DNA of 64,000 nt, from assembly GCA_963832745.1 (NCBI GenBank), contig CAWHVC010000003.1, forward strand, positions 768,001 through 832,000, in the 5' to 3' direction. The translations under genes and the position numbers were made by a program. Of the stretch, positions 4,986 to 62,716 are shown one piece after another; positions within the stretch are counted from its first letter, which is position 1, and each line of letters opens with the position of its first letter. This stretch comes from Candidatus Bathyarchaeota archaeon (GTDB lineage: Archaea; Thermoproteota; Bathyarchaeia; Bathyarchaeales; Bathycorpusculaceae). Below the pieces are notes generated by a model. It was given only the letters and a program-made list of their open reading frames with translations. It searched no databases and was not told the DNA's origin.

Positions 4986-5163
4986 CGCTTAAACCCCAAT
5001 TTTTAAGCTAAACTTTAGTTCAAGTTCTGCTATAGTTTAATTTGACGTTGAAAGCTCGGCAAACTTTCGTTTCTTTAAAAGAAACTCATTTAAGACTGAT
5101 GTAGCCGTATGCCTTGAACAAAGTGTGTGAAAAGACCAGTGGCAAATAAAGGAGGCTACCAAG

Positions 5164-8100
5164 TTAAGCAAACAAAACTTCGCCGTTCCGGCAGGCCAAG
5201 AAAACAACGTTACAGTAGCCCAGCCTCCGTTAACTGCTGACGAAATTTTAGGCAAACCTGTACAGGAATTATTCAACCGTTTAGATTCTTCAATCAGTGG
5301 TTTAAGCTCCGAGGAAGCTGAAAACCGCCTTGAAGTTTATGGCCGAAACGAGCTTGCAAAAAAGCACAAACGTTCCGTAATCATCGAGTTTCTGATGAAC
5401 TTCAAAAGCCCACTTGTAATCATTTTAATGGTTGCAGGGTTAATCTCAGGCATCCTTGGCGAATTGCCCAACATGATTATTATTTTCACTATTGTCTTTC
5501 TTAGCGTTATTTTAGACTTCTATCAAGAGTCTAAAGCTGAAAACGCTGCAGAAATGCTAAAAGAAGCCGTAACAACGACTGCCACTGTAATCCGCGACGG
5601 CACAAAACAGGAAGTCAAGCTTCACGATGTTGTACCCGGCGACATAGTTTACCTTTCAGCCGGCGACATAACCCCCGCTGATGCACGAGTAATCTCTGCT
5701 AAAGACCTTTTCATTAACCAATCAGCCTTAACAGGTGAATCTTTCCCTGTAGAAAAAACTCCTTCACTGGTAAAAGTTAAAGACCCCACAATTACGGAAT
5801 GGAATAATTACCTTTTTATGGGAACATCAGTTGTCAGCGGTACATCAACTGCGTTGGTTGTTAGAACAGGCAGCTTAACAGAGTATGGTAAAATCGCCAA
5901 AAAACTTGTCGAGAAAGCTCCTGAAACCGAATTTGAAAAGGGCATCAAAAACTTTGGTTTCTTCATCATGCAGATAACCATACTTTTGGTTCTTTTCGTT
6001 TTCATGGTTAACGCTTTACTTCACCCTGACACACAAGGCATCCTAACCGCACTGCTTTTTGCGGTCGCACTTGCGGTCGGTTTGACTCCTGAACTCTTGC
6101 CAATGATTATCACCGTTAACCTGTCCCGAGGTGGTATTGCCATGTCCAAGAAAGGCGTCATCGTTAAACGTTTAGCTTCCATTGAAAACTTTGGCAGTAT
6201 GAACGTTTTATGCACAGATAAGACAGGGACGCTTACAGAAAACAGGATTACCCTTGTCCTGCACGTGGACCCAGAAGGCAACGATGATGATAAAGTGTTG
6301 CTGTACAGTTATCTTAACAGTTTCTACCAAACAGGCCTAAAAAGTCCTCTTGACGAAGCTATCCTTGTGCACGAAAAAATCGACACTGCAGGCTACCAAA
6401 AAATAGATGAGGTACCTTTCGATTTTGTCCGCAGGCGGGTAAGTGTTGTCGTAGAAAATGACCGACAAAGGTTCTTCATAGGTAAAGGCGCGCCAGAGGA
6501 AATTCTTAAAGTCTCATCATTCTGTGAAATAGGCGGTTTACCTGTTGACTTAACTGAGGAACTTCGTGAAAAGGCTGAACAGAAATATTACGATTTAAGT
6601 TCTGAAGGTTTCCGTGTTTTAGGTGTAGCTTACAAGAAGCTTAAGGAAGAAAAAACTGTTTACTCTGTTAATGATGAACGCGACATGGTGTTCATGGGGT
6701 TTGTGGCTTTTCTTGACCCTCCAAAAGAAACCGCCAAAGAATCTCTAAGACTATTAAGCAACGCTGGTATCGAACTTAAAATTTTGACTGGCGATAATGA
6801 GCAAGTTGCACGAAAAACCTGCGAGTCACTTGGGTTTGAAGTTAAGGGCGTTGCGTTAGGCAATGAAATAGCCTTAATGTCTGATGAAGCCTTAGCCCGC
6901 ATTGTTGAAGAGGACAATGTTTTCGCCCGTGTTACACCTGTTCAGAAAGACCGCATCATTACGCTTTTGAAAAGCAATGGTCATGTGGTCGGCTTCATGG
7001 GTGACGGCATTAACGATGCGCCTTCCTTGAAAAGCTCCGACGTAGGTATCTCAGTTAATAACGCTGTGGATGTTGCCAAAGAATCCGCTGACATTATTCT
7101 ACTTAAAAATGACCTTACCGTGCTAGCTGAGGGTGTGCTGGAGGGCCGAAAAACTTTCGGTAACACCATGAAGTATGTTATGATGGGTGTAAGCAGCAAC
7201 TTTGGAAACATGTTCAGTGTTGCAGGTGCTTCGTTGATTCTGCCGTTTTTAGGCTTTGACTTTTTGCCCATGCTTCCAATTCAGATTCTTCTCAATAACT
7301 TGCTTTACGATATTTCCCAGTCAGCAATAACAACTGATAATGTTGACGCCGAATATGTTGAGAAACCTAAACGTTGGGACATCGGTTACATCCGTAGTTT
7401 CATGATTTCGCTTGGTCCAGTCAGTTCACTGTTTGACTTCTTAACATTCTTCATAATGATGTTCTTCTTCCTACCATATGTAGCGTTGAGCCAGCAACAG
7501 CCACTGTTCCAAACTGCTTGGTTCTTGGAGTCCCTAATAACGCAAACGTTTATCATTTTTGCTATTCGTACACGCAAGTCGCCGTTTTGGAAGAGCAAAC
7601 CGGGAAAATACTTGGTCTTCAGTAGTCTTGCTATTATCGCAATAGCTGTGATTATTCCATTTACTACGTTTGGTGATACTTACTTCCTGTTTATACCGCC
7701 ACCGCCAGAATTCTTCGCTGTACTCGCCGGTTTAGTATTAGCTTACTTGGTGCTTGCTGAAGTGGTTAAACGTTGGTTCTACAAACGTAACTCTTATCGT
7801 GTTGAACAGGCGTTGGTGCCCAAGAAACGCGGTTTGTACCTGAGCAGACGTGCACGGCTTGTACAGGACGTTATCGCAGTGATTTGCCTAAGACTTGAAG
7901 ACGAAATCTCAATTGACTCCTTAATCGAAGACTTGACAAGAAGCCTCAATTACCCAATTAACCCTGACGAAGTGGCTCAAAACCTGCATCATCTTCGCCG
8001 CACAGGCTTAATCAGCATCGACTGGCACAATCGAACAATTAAACGCCAAGGCACAGTTAGAGAATACGTAACAGAGTACGTGGAAACTCAGGCGATTTGG

Positions 8101-8202
8101 CCAATGGTGTATGAGGATTGGGTGCGAATCAACAAGGCAATCTTTGACCGTTATGGCGAAGTTAACACTGAATACTCTGCATTGCTTACACAACAAAGAT
8201 AA
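5164..8202 (+). CDS. mgtA: Mg2+-transporting P-type ATPase (type IIIB) with C-terminal extension; start inferred at TTA 5164 (ORF track starts at 5395)
   Basis: TGES, PELLP, DKTGT, KGAPEE, GDGIND, SSNFGNMFS, LLNNLLYD; N-domain GLSSEEAENRLEVYGRNEL is in frame upstream of 5395. Confidence 0.92.
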   Translation, partial: LSKQNFAVPAGQENNVTVAQPPLTADEILGKPVQELFNRLDSSISGLSSEEAENRLEVYGRNELAKKHKRSVIIEFLMNFKSPLVIILMVAGLISGILGELPNMIIIFTIVFLSVILDFYQESKAENAAEMLKEAVTTTATVIRDGTKQEVKLHDVVPGDIVYLSAGDITPADARVISAKDLFINQSALTGESFPVEKTPSLVKVKDPTITEWNNYLFMGTSVVSGTSTALVVRTGSLTEYGKIAKKLVEKAPETEFEKGIKNFGFFIMQITILLVLFVFMVNALLHPDTQGILTALLFAVALAVGLTPELLPMIITVNLSRGGIAMSKKGVIVKRLASIENFGSMNVLCTDKTGTLTENRITLVLHVDPEGNDDDKVLLYSYLNSFYQTGLKSPLDEAILVHEKIDTAGYQKIDEVPFDFVRRRVSVVVENDRQRFFIGKGAPEEILKVSSFCEIGGLPVDLTEELREKAEQKYYDLSSEGFRVLGVAYKKLKEEKTVYSVNDERDMVFMGFVAFLDPPKETAKESLRLLSNAGIELKILTGDNEQVARKTCESLGFEVKGVALGNEIALMSDEALARIVEEDNVFARVTPVQKDRIITLLKSNGHVVGFMGDGINDAPSLKSSDVGISVNNAVDVAKESADIILLKNDLTVLAEGVLEGRKTFGNTMKYVMMGVSSNFGNMFSVAGASLILPFLGFDFLPMLPIQILLNNLLYDISQSAITTDNVDAEYVEKPKRWDIGYIRSFMISLGPVSSLFDFLTFFIMMFFFLPYVALSQQQPLFQTAWFLESLITQTFIIFAIRTRKSPFWKSKPGKYLVFSSLAIIAIAVIIPFTTFGDTYFLFIPPPPEFFAVLAGLVLAYLVLAEVVKRWFYKRNSYRVEQALVPKKRGLYLSRRARLVQDVIAVICLRLEDEISIDSLIEDLTRSLNYPINPDEVAQNLHHLRRTGLISIDWHNRTIKRQGTVREYVTEYVETQAIWPMVYEDWVRINKAIFDRYGEVNTEYSALLTQQR

Positions 8203-41697: not shown

Positions 41698-41783
41698 GCC
41701 TGAACTCCACCGTATTATTTCACTTTTGTTTCGATAAGTATAAACTTATCATTCTGAATAAAATGGTTAAAAGGTGAAAGTTT

Positions 41784-42356
41784 ACGGTAAGATGTGAAGT
41801 TTGCGGGCGTAAAATTCACAATGACCCAATTCGGGCAAATATTGAAGGCGCAAAATTAACCGTCTGTGCTGAATGTGCCAAACATGGCAAAATCATTTAT
41901 CCAGAAGAGGAAAATCGTGCACCTAAATCACCCTTCCTAACCATTGCATCAGGTTCCACTTCAGCCTCAGTAGCAAAACCCAAGAGGCAACCTCAAATGA
42001 TGCAGAGAAAACGCAACCTTGTCGCAAAGGTAGAATTCACTCAAGAATTAATCGAAGACTACGCCACCCTAATCCGCGTTACAAGAGAAAAACTTGGTTA
42101 CACCCATGAGGACCTTGGCTTAAAAATCAGCGAAAGAGCATCAGTACTAAAACATATTGAACTAGGCAAAATGGAGCCAAATAACCTTCTTGCCAGCAAG
42201 CTTGAACGCGCACTAAAAATCAAGCTGCTGGTCCCCATAGAAGAAGAAAAACCGACCCCGATTGCTTCAACTAAAAATCAAGAGATGACTTTGGGTGATC
42301 TTATCGAAATTGACAGTAACGACACGGAGGAACCCAAAGAACGAAAGCAATCATAG
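41784..42356 (+). CDS. mbf1: archaeal multiprotein bridging factor MBF1 (Zn ribbon + HTH); start inferred at ACG 41784
   Basis: RCEVCG...IEGAKLTVCAECAKHG is in frame upstream of ORF 41997; HTH and TLGD motif follow. Confidence 0.9.
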   Translation, partial: TVRCEVCGRKIHNDPIRANIEGAKLTVCAECAKHGKIIYPEEENRAPKSPFLTIASGSTSASVAKPKRQPQMMQRKRNLVAKVEFTQELIEDYATLIRVTREKLGYTHEDLGLKISERASVLKHIELGKMEPNNLLASKLERALKIKLLVPIEEEKPTPIASTKNQEMTLGDLIEIDSNDTEEPKERKQS

Positions 42357-43612
42357 CTCAAAGACGCCTAAACCGTGAAGAATCAAGCCTTGAAGAATTA
42401 AAGGCACTTGCAGAGTCAGCAGGATACACAGTTGTTGGCACCCTAGAGCAAACAAGACCGCCTGATTCACGATACCAAATAGGTGCAGGAAAAGTTGAAG
42501 AACTCGCCAACATGGTAAAAGAAACAGGCGCAACCAAAATCATTTTTGACAACACTTTACGTACAATACAAAACTATAATTTAGCTAAAGCCACAAGAGT
42601 CGAAGTCATCGACCGTTTTCAACTTATCCTTGAAATCTTTACACACCGCGCAACAACCACAGAGGCTCAACTGCAAATCCAGTTGGCAACTCTTAAAAAC
42701 GAGCTTAAACATGCCCGAGAAAAAGTGCGCTTATCCAAAGGCACCGAACAACCAGGTTTTATGGGTTTAGGCGCTTACGAAGCAGACGTTTACCGAGACG
42801 CCATCAAACTGCAAGTACAAACCAACTTGAAAAAATTGGCGGCAATCCGAACAAAACGCGTTTTGCAACGTGAAAGAAGAATAGAACTCGGTTTCATTTC
42901 AATTTCACTTGCAGGCTACACAAGCGCAGGTAAAAGCACCTTATTTAATGCTTTAACGGAGGAGACCGCAAGAGTTGAAAAATCCCTATTCACTACTTTA
43001 TCGACCCAAACGCGTATTGTAGAGTTTTCTAACCGCAAATTCCTCTTAACCGACACCGTCGGCTTCATTGACCGCTTGCCAATTTCACTTATTGAAGCTT
43101 TCCATTCAACATTGGAAGAAACCATTTACTCTGACTTAATCGTCATAGTCCTTGACCTTAAAGAGCCGTTGGAGTTAATTGAAAAGAAAATCCGCGTCTG
43201 CCATGACACAATCAACCGTTTAGGAGCAGGCGGCATCCCACAAATTACAGCCTTAAACAAGGTTGACAGGCTAAGCCCTGAAGAGACACAACAAAAACTT
43301 GAAGCCTTAAAAGAAAAAATCCTCAACCCAATACTAATTTCAGCAAAAAAACGTACAAACCTAGATGAGTTAAAACGGCAGATTGTACGTATGCTGGAAA
43401 ATTATGTGCAAGGAAGCTTTGCTGTTCCATTGAAGGGCGAGTCAATGCCGTTTATTTCGTGGGTTCATGAAAAAGCTGAAGTTAAAAAAGAAGAATTCTT
43501 AGGCGACCGTGTACAGGTTGAATTTGAAGCTAACCCACAAGTTGCTGAACAAATAAGAAGAAAAGTGGAAAAACTCAATGGAAAATTCACCCAACCAGTT
43601 AATGGCCAATAA
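42341..43612 (+). CDS. hflX: GTPase HflX; start inferred at ACG 42341
   Basis: KAIIAQ...LEELKALAESAGY...YQIGAGKVEE is in frame upstream of ORF 42512; GYTSAGKST, DTVGF, NKVD. Confidence 0.93.
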   Translation, partial: TKAIIAQRRLNREESSLEELKALAESAGYTVVGTLEQTRPPDSRYQIGAGKVEELANMVKETGATKIIFDNTLRTIQNYNLAKATRVEVIDRFQLILEIFTHRATTTEAQLQIQLATLKNELKHAREKVRLSKGTEQPGFMGLGAYEADVYRDAIKLQVQTNLKKLAAIRTKRVLQRERRIELGFISISLAGYTSAGKSTLFNALTEETARVEKSLFTTLSTQTRIVEFSNRKFLLTDTVGFIDRLPISLIEAFHSTLEETIYSDLIVIVLDLKEPLELIEKKIRVCHDTINRLGAGGIPQITALNKVDRLSPEETQQKLEALKEKILNPILISAKKRTNLDELKRQIVRMLENYVQGSFAVPLKGESMPFISWVHEKAEVKKEEFLGDRVQVEFEANPQVAEQIRRKVEKLNGKFTQPVNGQ

Positions 43613-50507: not shown

Positions 50508-50905
50508 CTATTGGGGAATAACAGCGGTTGCGTCGATTTCAAGCAGCCATTCAGGATTACCTAAACCAGCTACAAAGACCACTGTTATAGCTGGAAGATT
50601 CTGGCTTGCCCATTTCTGTTGAAAAACCATAAAACCTTCAGCAGGGTTTTGTCCTACAAGAATGTAAATGTTGAATTTGACTACGTTTTCAAGTTTGCCG
50701 CCGGCCTTTTGCAGGATTTTTTCAATGTTGGATAAAACCTGTTCTGTTTGTTCTCGTAGGTTACCTTTGCCGATCAGTTCGCCAGTCTGGTTTATGGCGT
50801 TTTGTCCGCCTATGTAAACGGTTTTGTGGTTGCCGCTGACGCTAATGGCGTGTGAGTATCCTTTGGTGCCGCCATGGTTTCAGGGTTAATGGGTTCTATT
50901 GGCAT
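50508..50905 (-). pseudogene. RidA-family protein with two frameshifts
   Basis: pieces read MPIEPINP..PK / GYSHA...VYIGGQ...EQTEQVLSNI...VVKFNIY / LPAITVVFVAGL..PEWLLEIDATA; missed by the ORF track. Confidence 0.8.
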
Positions 50906-60972: not shown

Positions 60973-62210
60973 TAAAGCGCCTGGAACTCCTTTAGCACTT
61001 CAAGGAAACGGTTTACCTCTTCCTTAGTATTATAGAGATAGAAGCTAGCGCGGGCGCTGGATTGCAACTGGAAGATTTGGTGCAGTGGTTGTGCACAGTG
61101 ATATCCGCTACGTATGGCTATTCCGTAGCTGTCGCATAAGAGGGCAACATCATGTGATGATAAGCCTACAACGCTGAAAGGTATTATCCCACATTTGCTT
61201 GAAAGCTCTGTTGGACCGTGAACGGTTATTTTGCTCATGTCTTTCATGCCTTTCATTGCCTGTTTTGTGAGGGCTTTTTCGTGAGCTAAAATATTTTCCA
61301 TTTCAACTTGTTGAAGGTATTTTATGGCTGCTGCTAACCCGATTGCACCCGATATGTTCGGTGTGCCTGCTTCAAACTTCCAAGGGGATTCATTCCAGCT
61401 TATGTCGCATTGCTGACTTTGGAAATTGTAAGCTACGTCTTTTATCATTTCTCCGCCGCCTTGGAATGGCCCCATCTTTTCAAGCAACGTTTTCTTGCCA
61501 TATAAGACGCCGATTCCTGTTGGAGCAAGCATTTTGTGTCCCGAGAAAGCCAAAAAGTCAGCGTCAAGATCTTGAACGTCAACTTTCATGTGCGGAACGG
61601 ATTGAGCGCCGTCTACAAGCATTAAAGCGCCGTTATCATGTGCAATTTTTGATAAGCGTTTTATGTCGTTTACTACGCCTGTAACGTTTGAAACTTGGCT
61701 TATGCAGGTGATTTTTGTTTTCGGTGTAATTTTGCTTTCAAAATCTTTGATGTCTAAAACACCCTCGGATGTGACGTTTGCATAGTTTATTTTGAAGCCA
61801 CGGATTTTAGCGGTAATTTCCCATGGAACAATGTTGCTGTGATGCTCCATTAGGGAAACGAGGACTTCGTCACCCTTTTTGAGGTTGTTTAGTCCCCAAG
61901 AGTAAGCGGCAAGGTTAATTGCTTCAGTTGTTCCTCTAACAAAAACTATTTCGGAAGACTCTTTTGCGTTTATGAATTTTGCAACTTGTTCACGGCTTTT
62001 CTCATACATTTCAGTAGCTTCTAAAGAGAGCGTGTGTACTCCTCGGTGAACGTTAGCGTTATTGTTTTCGTAATAGTCGGTTATGGCTTGTATGACTTGT
62101 CGGGGTTTTTGTGTTGTTGCGGCGTTGTCAAAGTAGATGAGGGGGTTATTGTTTACTTTACGTTTTAGAATTGGAAAATCGTCGCGAATCCGAGTTAGAT
62201 CTATTGGGAT
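60972..62210 (-). CDS. sufS: group II cysteine desulfurase; start inferred at ATC 62210 (or ATA 62204)
   Basis: IRDDFPIL..IYFDNAATTQKP...NVHRG is in frame upstream of ORF start 62009; MEHHSN, DGAQ, SGHK, RSGYHCA. Confidence 0.93.
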   Translation of the reverse strand: MPIDLTRIRDDFPILKRKVNNNPLIYFDNAATTQKPRQVIQAITDYYENNNANVHRGVHTLSLEATEMYEKSREQVAKFINAKESSEIVFVRGTTEAINLAAYSWGLNNLKKGDEVLVSLMEHHSNIVPWEITAKIRGFKINYANVTSEGVLDIKDFESKITPKTKITCISQVSNVTGVVNDIKRLSKIAHDNGALMLVDGAQSVPHMKVDVQDLDADFLAFSGHKMLAPTGIGVLYGKKTLLEKMGPFQGGGEMIKDVAYNFQSQQCDISWNESPWKFEAGTPNISGAIGLAAAIKYLQQVEMENILAHEKALTKQAMKGMKDMSKITVHGPTELSSKCGIIPFSVVGLSSHDVALLCDSYGIAIRSGYHCAQPLHQIFQLQSSARASFYLYNTKEEVNRFLEVLKEFQAL

Positions 62211-62716
62211 TTTTCTTCCTCCGGCTTTAGCCTCTTAGACAGCGTCTTGGCTAATTCTTCCTCTTCTAAGGCTTGCTTTTCTTCAAAAGTGTTTTCCTTA
62301 GGCATCCATGCTGGTTCAGCGCCTTTTTTGGCATCAAAATATTTTCTGATTGCACGTTTCAACGCGCCGACGGCGAGAACTCCGCAGTGGAATTTAACGC
62401 TTGGCAAGCCGCCGATTGCGTCGGTAACTTTTTTCCAAGTAATGTCATTCCAAGCAACTTCAAGAGTTAAACCTTTAACCATTTCAGTAACTATGCTTGA
62501 GGTTGCAATGTTAGCGGCACAACCGTAGCTTTCGAATTGTGCTTTTTCAATAATTTGAGTTTCCTCGTTAATTTTTAGGTAAAAAGTTATCATGTCTCCG
62601 CATGCAGGGTTGCCAGCGACTGCTACGACTGTGGCGTCATCCATTTTTCCAAGGTTTTTGGGGTTGCGGAATAAATCCATAACTTTCGGGTTATAAGGTA
62701 AAGGTATACGCGACGT
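62201..62716 (-). CDS. iscU: Fe-S scaffold IscU/NifU-N; start inferred at ACG 62716
   Basis: YNPKVMDLFRNPKNLG, GNPACGD, GCAANIA, KFHC. Confidence 0.92.
   Translation of the reverse strand, partial: TSRIPLPYNPKVMDLFRNPKNLGKMDDATVVAVAGNPACGDMITFYLKINEETQIIEKAQFESYGCAANIATSSIVTEMVKGLTLEVAWNDITWKKVTDAIGGLPSVKFHCGVLAVGALKRAIRKYFDAKKGAEPAWMPKENTFEEKQALEEEELAKTLSKRLKPEEEKSQ

Follow-up and report, generated by a model that had tools for sequence, protein, structure and literature searches.

Adjacent mbf1 and hflX genes with probable ACG start codons in a genome of the Bathyarchaeia

The mbf1-hflX locus and the genomes compared

The sequence analysed here, called the window below, is a stretch of 64,000 nucleotides (nt) from an uncultured soil or gut archaeon of the Bathyarchaeia; it corresponds to G000:C3:768001-832000, where G000 is the genome that carries it (3.02 Mb, 5 contigs, 99% completeness). 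On its forward strand, the window encodes two adjacent and overlapping genes, mbf1 and hflX (Table 1), which an initial annotation had proposed to start both at ACG. We consider it probable that the two genes are intact, translated and initiated at ACG as a near-cognate start codon. This reading is based on the lack of a canonical start (ATG, GTG or TTG), homology to canonical starts, conservation, Shine-Dalgarno (SD) geometry, purifying selection and enrichment, and it is strongly supported for hflX and reasonably supported for mbf1.

Both products show the domain architecture of their families. HflX contains GTP-bdg_N (97.2 bits for a cut-off of 25.4), GTP-bdg_M (41.6 for 29.5) and MMR_HSR1 (68.4 for 21.9). 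For MBF1, the ribbon CEVC...CAEC can be read directly and HTH_3 scores 27.7 bits (cut-off 23); the HVO_2718-like match of the ribbon reaches 24.4 bits, under its cut-off of 30.3. Archaeal MBF1 proteins typically also have a TLGDL motif close to the C-terminus. A putative promoter element of the mbf1-hflX unit is followed by a mini-open reading frame (mini-ORF), at the ATG of which (41763) the closest relatives carry ATG or TTG and which probably lies at or 5' of the transcript start.

The comparisons rely on two sets of loci. Set 1 was used for hflX and contains 63 loci at the level of the order (27 from the same genus, 12 from other genera of the family and 24 from other families); beyond the order, hflX was compared in 46 further loci of the same class. 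Set 2 contains 77 named loci and overlaps set 1, both being drawn from the same species-representative collection.

The start of hflX

The hflX frame reads TAA (42317), GGAGG (42326-42330), 10 nt and then ACG (42341) AAA GCA ATC ATA. The earliest canonical start in this frame is ATG 42512, 57 codons past ACG, all of which agrees with the initial annotation; this ATG falls within the Pfam domain GTP-bdg_N, which begins at residue 21 of the open frame, that is 14 residues past ACG.

At the level of the order, the codon aligned to the hflX ACG is itself ACG in 52 of the 63 loci, namely in 25 of the 27 same-genus genomes (the other two have ATT and ATG), in each of the 12 that represent other genera within the family and in 15 of the 24 that represent other families. 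The nine loci of other families that lack it comprise two with ATG, one with ATA at the position, four (L062, L064, L067 and L076) with ATA or ATT at the position or one codon before, and two without clear assignment (L066, which reads GTA ACA, and L084). The codons replacing ACG, i.e. ATG, ATT and ATA, are ATG or one-letter neighbours of it. Set 2 gives a similar picture, with ACG in 71 of the 76 named loci that have a match and two more loci shifted by one base. Close relatives thus have the same ACG arrangement, and the possibility considered in the initial annotation that all of them carry ATG was not borne out.

The 46 loci from other orders display ATG (11), TTG (6), CTG (4), GTG (1) or ACG (3) at the hflX position, four give no match and the remaining rows correspond to alignment offsets. 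The ATG, TTG, CTG and GTG codons stand directly 5' of the conserved [KR]-A-[IV]-[IV]-V strand of HflX. Since canonical starts occupy the same place in these relatives, the hflX ACG is homologous in position to a start codon.

No other start is available upstream in nearly all of these genomes: 51 of the 52 order-level ACG loci have zero in-frame canonical starts from the upstream stop to the hflX ACG, and this stop is the codon immediately 5' of ACG in four loci and one codon further in four more. Downstream, the first canonical start in the hflX frame is found at 4 to 140 codons, its position varying among these loci. Nearly all ACG-bearing relatives carry GGAGG exactly 10 nt 5' of the hflX ACG. 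We conclude that hflX very probably starts at ACG and, judging from its distribution in the alignments, this predicted start is ancient and has been kept through a whole order of Bathyarchaeia.

Four loci of another family in the class (L088 and L092-L094) show CTG at the position aligned with the hflX start, behind AAGGTG; an in-frame GTG located three codons 5' of this CTG may be an SD or a start.

The start of mbf1

The mbf1 frame reads TGA (41775) AAG TTT ACG (41784) GTA (41787) AGA TGT (41793) GAA GTT TGC, with just AAG, TTT, ACG, GTA and AGA between the stop and the first cysteine codon. The earliest ATG, GTG or TTG in frame is ATG 41997, 71 codons downstream and beyond the CxxC...CxxC ribbon (41793-41876). 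The initial annotation had read the frame in this way, with GGTGA 6 nt before the ACG and with the ribbon lost if translation began at ATG 41997.

In the relatives, the mbf1 start is the codon directly 5' of (A/C)GN TGY GAA GTY TGY (M-R-C-E-V-C). It is GTG, TTG or ATG in 27 of 29 loci, the other two having GTA and GTC, and among the 77 named loci it is TTG (44), GTG (13), ATG (13) or GTA (3), one locus being misaligned and three giving no match; a canonical start is therefore found directly before R-C-E-V-C-G in 70 of the 77. All four genomes with GTA (G000 and three named species-level genomes) read ACG GTA, whereas ACG precedes a canonical mbf1 start in only two of 70 loci (ACG GTG and ACG TTG); elsewhere the preceding codon is ACA, ACC, ACT, TTC, ATC and others.

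A maximum-likelihood tree of the mbf1-hflX DNA was computed on 16 rows, the short L148 being omitted and the trait's own 9 columns removed. The GTA genomes branch off one after the other in this tree, the GTG lineages nested among them have ACC, ATC, ATT, ACT or TTT in place of ACG, and a single clade of GTA genomes is rejected (approximately unbiased (AU) test, p 0.022). Either several losses of GTG took place while ACG was present, or GTG came back and ACG decayed afterwards; both scenarios alike tie ACG to the missing canonical start.

Over the 40 codons of the zinc ribbon, the GTA genomes differ from each other by 0.35-0.56 synonymous (dS) and 0.011-0.021 non-synonymous (dN) substitutions per site (dN/dS about 0.03-0.04); this strong purifying selection argues that the ribbon is translated. 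The spacing between SD and start was compared with that of 903 confidently placed canonical starts of G000, 146 of which have a 5-mer SD. For GGTGA, it is 6 nt in 40 of 65 cases (the mode) and 9 nt in 6 of 65. The mbf1 ACG, 6 nt from GGTGA, is thus at the modal spacing and the GTA, at 9 nt, in the tail. We consider it likely that mbf1 starts at ACG rather than at GTA, and this ACG, as far as the compared genomes tell, is recent (4 of about 74 genomes). The conservation of ACG across sister genomes, which the initial annotation proposed to check, consequently holds for hflX and not for mbf1, and the two ACG codons have separate histories, one being recent and the other order-wide.

The out-of-frame ATG at 41792 was rejected as a start, as TGA comes immediately after it and AGATGYGAA encodes R-C-E in all relatives; the missing TG that would have placed this ATG at the head of the frame, as envisaged initially, was not borne out either. 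Separately, the locus L031 (genome G030, same order) has GTC at the mbf1 start and an in-frame GTG five codons upstream, which may be another shifted start.

Overlap of mbf1 and hflX

The position of the mbf1 stop relative to the hflX ACG was compared in 54 ACG-bearing loci. It is +13 in 37 of them (as in G000), +10 in four and different in eight, and five have a TAACG junction in which the mbf1 TAA shares one base with ACG, i.e. the classical TAATG with C for T; overall, the stop lies between -2 and +13 nt from the ACG in 46 of the 54. The loci L060 and L072, where hflX has ATG, show the classical ATGA junction with mbf1, and the MBF1 tail differs in L005 (hflX ATT) and L043 (hflX ATG). Directly after the start, ACG AAA, ACG AGA and ACG AGG are all present among relatives. 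As the position of the mbf1 stop varies while ACG stays, ACG tracks hflX and not the MBF1 tail, and dual coding is ruled out as the only reason for the invariant hflX ACG. A fusion of MBF1 and HflX by programmed -1 frameshift was also rejected, since there is no conserved slippery site and stops are found immediately 5' of ACG in four loci.

ACG use across the genome

A hexamer coding model was applied to the 4,376 open frames of at least 100 codons in G000. It classified 2,626 frames as gene-like, with a coding potential that begins well 5' of the first canonical start in 112 of them. The test set consisted of 17,536 codons located at least 4 codons 5' of the first canonical start, an SD being defined as a 5-mer at 5-10 nt. 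Overall, 182 of the 17,536 codons (1.0%) are preceded by an SD, and ACG is so in 13 of 193 cases (6.7%) versus 169 of 17,343 for the other codons (binomial p 8e-8). With CGT as runner-up (4 of 136), no non-canonical codon other than ACG shows a clear enrichment. A whole-genome count of the codons following GGTGA, AGGTG or GGAGG, made independently of open frames, had no power, as ATG was not clearly recovered either.

The 13 SD-preceded ACG candidates include mbf1 and hflX. For three further ones, a family 2 glycosyltransferase, an A24 peptidase and a NuoF-like protein, the Pfam domain begins before the first canonical start (Table 1); for six others, Pfam is silent on the N-terminus. The candidates also comprise a DnaG-like Toprim protein, which we take to be DnaG. 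In 27 loci, one position of this gene is occupied by ACG (19) or ATG (6), the other two loci having ATG or TTG one codon later. The start of the A24 peptidase is ACG in G000 and one sister, ATT in three relatives and ATA in two, and TTG one codon later in five. By post hoc arithmetic (13 genes among 2,626), an adjacent pair such as mbf1 and hflX would be expected by chance about 0.06 times. From these counts, ACG seems to be an extra, presumably weak fourth start codon for a minority of genes in the lineage.

Table 1. Location of the features of the mbf1-hflX locus (positions in the window) and of further SD-preceded ACG candidates of G000 (contig and position)
Feature	Location	Strand	Remarks
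mbf1 coding sequence	41784-42356	+	190 codons and TAG; zinc ribbon 41793-41876, helix-turn-helix about 42078-42227
mbf1 proposed start codon ACG	41784-41786	+	precedes GTA in 4/4 GTA genomes
GTA, homologous to the GTG/TTG/ATG start of mbf1 in relatives	41787-41789	+	from the alignment of relatives
mbf1 Shine-Dalgarno GGTGA	41773-41777	+	6 nt 5' of ACG 41784
hflX coding sequence	42341-43612	+	423 codons and stop; Pfam GTP-bdg_N, GTP-bdg_M and MMR_HSR1 above cut-offs
hflX proposed start codon ACG	42341-42343	+	kept in the order; aligned with canonical starts of distant relatives
hflX Shine-Dalgarno GGAGG	42326-42330	+	within the mbf1 coding sequence; 10 nt 5' of ACG
mbf1/hflX overlap, 16 nt	42341-42356	+	mbf1 stop TAG 42354-42356 inside hflX
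Putative promoter element (B recognition element (BRE)/TATA) of the mbf1-hflX unit, TTTCGATAAGTATAAAC	41729-41745	+	TTCGACAAGTATAAAC-like motif 5' of mbf1 in most relatives; putative function
Mini-ORF ATG GTT AAA AGG TGA	41763-41777	+	in frame with mbf1; stop inside the SD
Family 2 glycosyltransferase	C5:39918-41088	-	Pfam domain from residue 9, first canonical start codon 48
A24 peptidase	C5:278227-279139	-	Pfam domain from residue 16, first canonical start codon 46
NuoF-like protein, thioredoxin-like 2Fe-2S domain	C4:184257-186003	-	domain from residue 18, first canonical start codon 40
DnaG-like Toprim protein	C1:26552	+	SD-preceded ACG candidate
Two paralogous small membrane proteins	C4:2984 and C4:84623	+	identical GGAGG-N8-ACG leaders
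Kelch-repeat protein, signal-peptide-like N-terminus	C1:378629-380363	-	SD-preceded ACG candidate

Other genes of the window with start anomalies

Three other genes of the window have an unusual beginning. (i) A class-V aminotransferase gene, cysteine desulfurase-like (60975-62234, minus strand), lacks a canonical start: its Pfam domain begins at residue 33 and its first ATG, GTG or TTG is codon 75. Behind a GGAGG come ATC (62210) at 7 nt and ATA (62204) at 13 nt, and at the ATA position the same genus has GTG in seven loci, ATA in five and in G000, and one GTA after ATA. (ii) A RidA/L-PSP-like gene (50511-50879, minus strand, and about 45 nt upstream) carries a frameshift: some 15 codons at its beginning (ATG CCA ATA GAA...) are in another frame, the join being at CCAAAGGATAC, and two orthologues in relatives are each in one frame. 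An indel in the assembly, a pseudogene or a -1 slip at A AAG might each account for this frameshift. (iii) A P-type cation ATPase gene (5131-8199, plus strand) has Cation_ATPase_N from residue 42 and its first canonical start at codon 88; a GGAGG is present near codon 8, with no obvious near-cognate codon at the usual spacing.

Discussion

How ACG could be used

In the mechanism that we propose, strong SD pairing (GGTGA + 6 nt for mbf1, GGAGG + 10 nt for hflX) would first set ACG in the P site, where the ordinary initiator Met-tRNA (anticodon CAU) would read it with a mismatch at the middle position; initiation at ACG would be weak. In mbf1, ACG would have arisen beside the old GTG start, after which GTG would have been free to decay to GTA. 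G000 has a single initiator tRNA gene of the ordinary type (CAT; A1:U72 and GGG/CCC in the anticodon stem), its tRNA-Thr(CGT) is a normal elongator, and a search of this genome for an initiator-like tRNA carrying the anticodon CGT found none. RNA folding at the two starts gave no structure beyond that of shuffles (z 0.89 and -0.49). The aIF1 gene of G000 has an ordinary ATG start, and the e/aIF1, e/aIF1A and e/aIF2 core is common to archaea and eukaryotes.

A wider proposal can be made tentatively, and we hold it with some doubt: a whole order of Bathyarchaeia might use ACG as a regular fourth start, with occasional ATA, ATT or ATC, owing to a eukaryote-like tolerance set by the e/aIF1-type fidelity machinery, and the hflX ACG might be kept by selection for a weak, conditional start that links a ribosome-splitting GTPase both with the collision sensor MBF1, through its translation, and with the condition of the initiation apparatus. 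It is possible that selection favours a weak or conditional start for hflX.

Several observations weigh against initiation at ACG. The start position given in the initial annotation is homologous to the starts of relatives for hflX and not for mbf1, the homologous mbf1 start codon in G000 being GTA 41787, with ACG one codon upstream. The support in the tree for the paraphyly of the GTA genomes is moderate, and the fact that ACG is kept in all four is weak statistical evidence because they are close relatives (dS as given above). For hflX, a spacing of 10 nt after GGAGG is one base past the mode in G000, where 10 nt is found in 2 of 47 canonical GGAGG cases and 9 nt in 19 of 47. In the +13 geometry, a threonine (ACN) in hflX and an arginine (CGN) in mbf1 would alone fix A-C-G. 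Two of the 13 candidates need no ACG (an ABC-2 permease whose domain is encoded from GTG, and a class I tRNA synthetase-like protein with ATG at codon 13), and no public RNA run containing the mbf1-hflX locus was found. In E. coli, ACG is among the codons that initiate at 0.1-1% of AUG (bioRxiv 10.1101/063800); an efficient use of ACG would therefore need a lineage-specific tolerance.

Alternative explanations

HflX could be made mainly by termination-reinitiation, in which ribosomes terminating on mbf1 would be caught by GGAGG and would restart at ACG, de novo initiation being negligible. Indeed, mbf1 and hflX overlap or adjoin in nearly all order-level loci, TAACG and ATGA are classical coupling geometries, coupling has been described in archaea (PMC6728339; PMC12548453) and mbf1 and hflX are known as neighbours in Crenarchaeota (PMC3062615). 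However, a de novo start would equally need the strong conserved SD, no hairpin requiring unfolding is predicted around it, and ACG starts are also found in genes without such an upstream partner, mbf1 included, so that reinitiation cannot be the general cause although it may contribute at hflX. It would in any case be a sub-mechanism of ACG initiation and no substitute for ACG, the synthesis of HflX then being tied to the translation of MBF1; as the main route to HflX we regard it as rather unlikely. Another possibility is that mbf1 starts at GTA 41787 and that the preceding ACG is irrelevant. This GTA has in its favour its homology to the GTG, TTG or ATG of relatives and a distance of 9 nt from GGTGA, which is the spacing of these relatives for mbf1. 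It leaves aside the joint presence of ACG and GTA in four of four genomes, when ACG precedes a canonical start in two of 70, as well as the modal spacing and the genome-wide enrichment of ACG; moreover, GTA is two positions off AUG and is, to our knowledge, not a known start codon. We consider a GTA start improbable.

Editing from C to U could turn ACG into AUG in the mRNA, as happens at some starts in plant organelles, and ACG and ATG do alternate at one position among relatives. Yet relatives also have ATT, ATA and ATC at start positions (hflX, A24 peptidase, cysteine desulfurase), which such editing cannot convert to AUG, and we know of no mRNA editing in archaea; a DYW-type deaminase match was not found in G000, but control genomes were silent too, which makes this negative result weak. 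Editing appears very improbable. The initial annotation had suggested that weak starts couple the synthesis of both proteins to initiation fidelity, by analogy with the AUU start of infC, so that MBF1 and HflX synthesis would sense this fidelity. Both proteins act on ribosomes, and the order-wide retention of ACG in hflX, though ATG is one mutation off, suggests that a weak or conditional start has been selected for. Nevertheless, SD-preceded ACG codons in the glycosyltransferase, A24 peptidase, NuoF-like and DnaG-like primase genes indicate that the link with the ribosome is not special; in addition, the mbf1 ACG is recent and rare, the actual fidelity factor aIF1 starts at ATG, and we know of nothing that would make MBF1 or HflX a start-codon discriminator. 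As the atypical start is not specific to one gene, the suggested coupling is unsupported and there is little reason to favour it. Finally, an artefact or decay (sequencing or assembly error, pseudogenes or a -1 frameshift fusion of MBF1 and HflX) might be suspected in a metagenome-type assembly whose window also carries the frameshifted ridA-like gene. But the same codons are found in independent species-level genomes, and a local sequencing error is excluded by ACG GTA in three further genomes and by the hflX ACG in most named loci; both frames are open and show purifying selection, and the lack of a conserved slippery site and the stops before the hflX ACG speak against a fusion as described above. 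Four read sets (X1, X2, X4 and X19) yielded nothing but short contigs from relatives; one of these contigs (X4) spans 42272-42642, with 42341-42343 absent among the differences listed; none of the public sequencing runs searched contains the stretch of the window (best share of words 0.15). This explanation is extremely unlikely, and near-cognate initiation at ACG is the reading that we retain for the comparisons below.

Comparison with known systems

Bacterial infC has an AUU start, and IF3 discriminates against its own start codon in an autoregulatory manner. The ACG starts proposed here resemble this case as a conserved, atypical and weak start on a translation-related gene, and differ from it in that ACG is found in more than one gene and that aIF1 has ATG. 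Among archaeal start codons, the part of a 2020 review considered here names AUG, GUG and UUG only, with ACG unmentioned (PMC7531240), and the same three are given in another source (PMC4705826). In the literature on ACG or non-canonical starts in archaea and Bathyarchaeia, taken without supplements, we found no description of ACG starts.

ACG is one of the codons that allow 2-30% in eukaryotes (PMC3542737). Eukaryotic and viral ACG starts, such as that of Sendai virus C', can be likened to the present ones, as they use Met-tRNAi, depend on context and have a reduced output (PMC3542737). The context here is however an SD in an archaeon instead of scanning and a Kozak sequence, and ACG would be the sole start of the protein instead of giving an alternative N-terminal extension. 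A rare ATT start has been proposed for an Asgard tubulin gene (PMC13394414): as here, the deposited protein is N-terminally truncated and the conserved first strand is restored by a near-cognate codon plausibly spaced from the ribosome-binding site. Unlike here, that proposal concerns one gene and ATT instead of ACG, with no conservation analysis in the portion of the text considered (PMC13394414). Archaeal coupled pairs (PMC6728339; PMC12548453) share with mbf1-hflX the co-directed arrangement and the stop/start overlap, including TAACG and ATGA in relatives, whereas the junctions described in the parts considered involve ATG, GTG or TTG and the restart here would be at ACG, with a 16-nt overlap in G000. 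New elements of the present work are the GTG-to-GTA hand-over in mbf1, the test across mbf1 stop geometries, the enrichment of SD-preceded ACG in G000 and the ACG/ATG alternation of the DnaG-like gene.

Conclusions

Gene callers assume AUG, GUG and UUG and would miss ACG starts. If the present reading is true, the annotated forms of HflX, MBF1, the DnaG-like primase and some ten further proteins in each genome are too short or begin at the wrong codon throughout a large, ubiquitous uncultured lineage. The mbf1 series, from ACA TTG to ACG GTG and ACG GTA, and back, provides a rare view of the hand-over of a start between neighbouring codons. The lineage would then offer a natural system for how eukaryote-like archaeal initiation factors set the stringency of start-codon selection.

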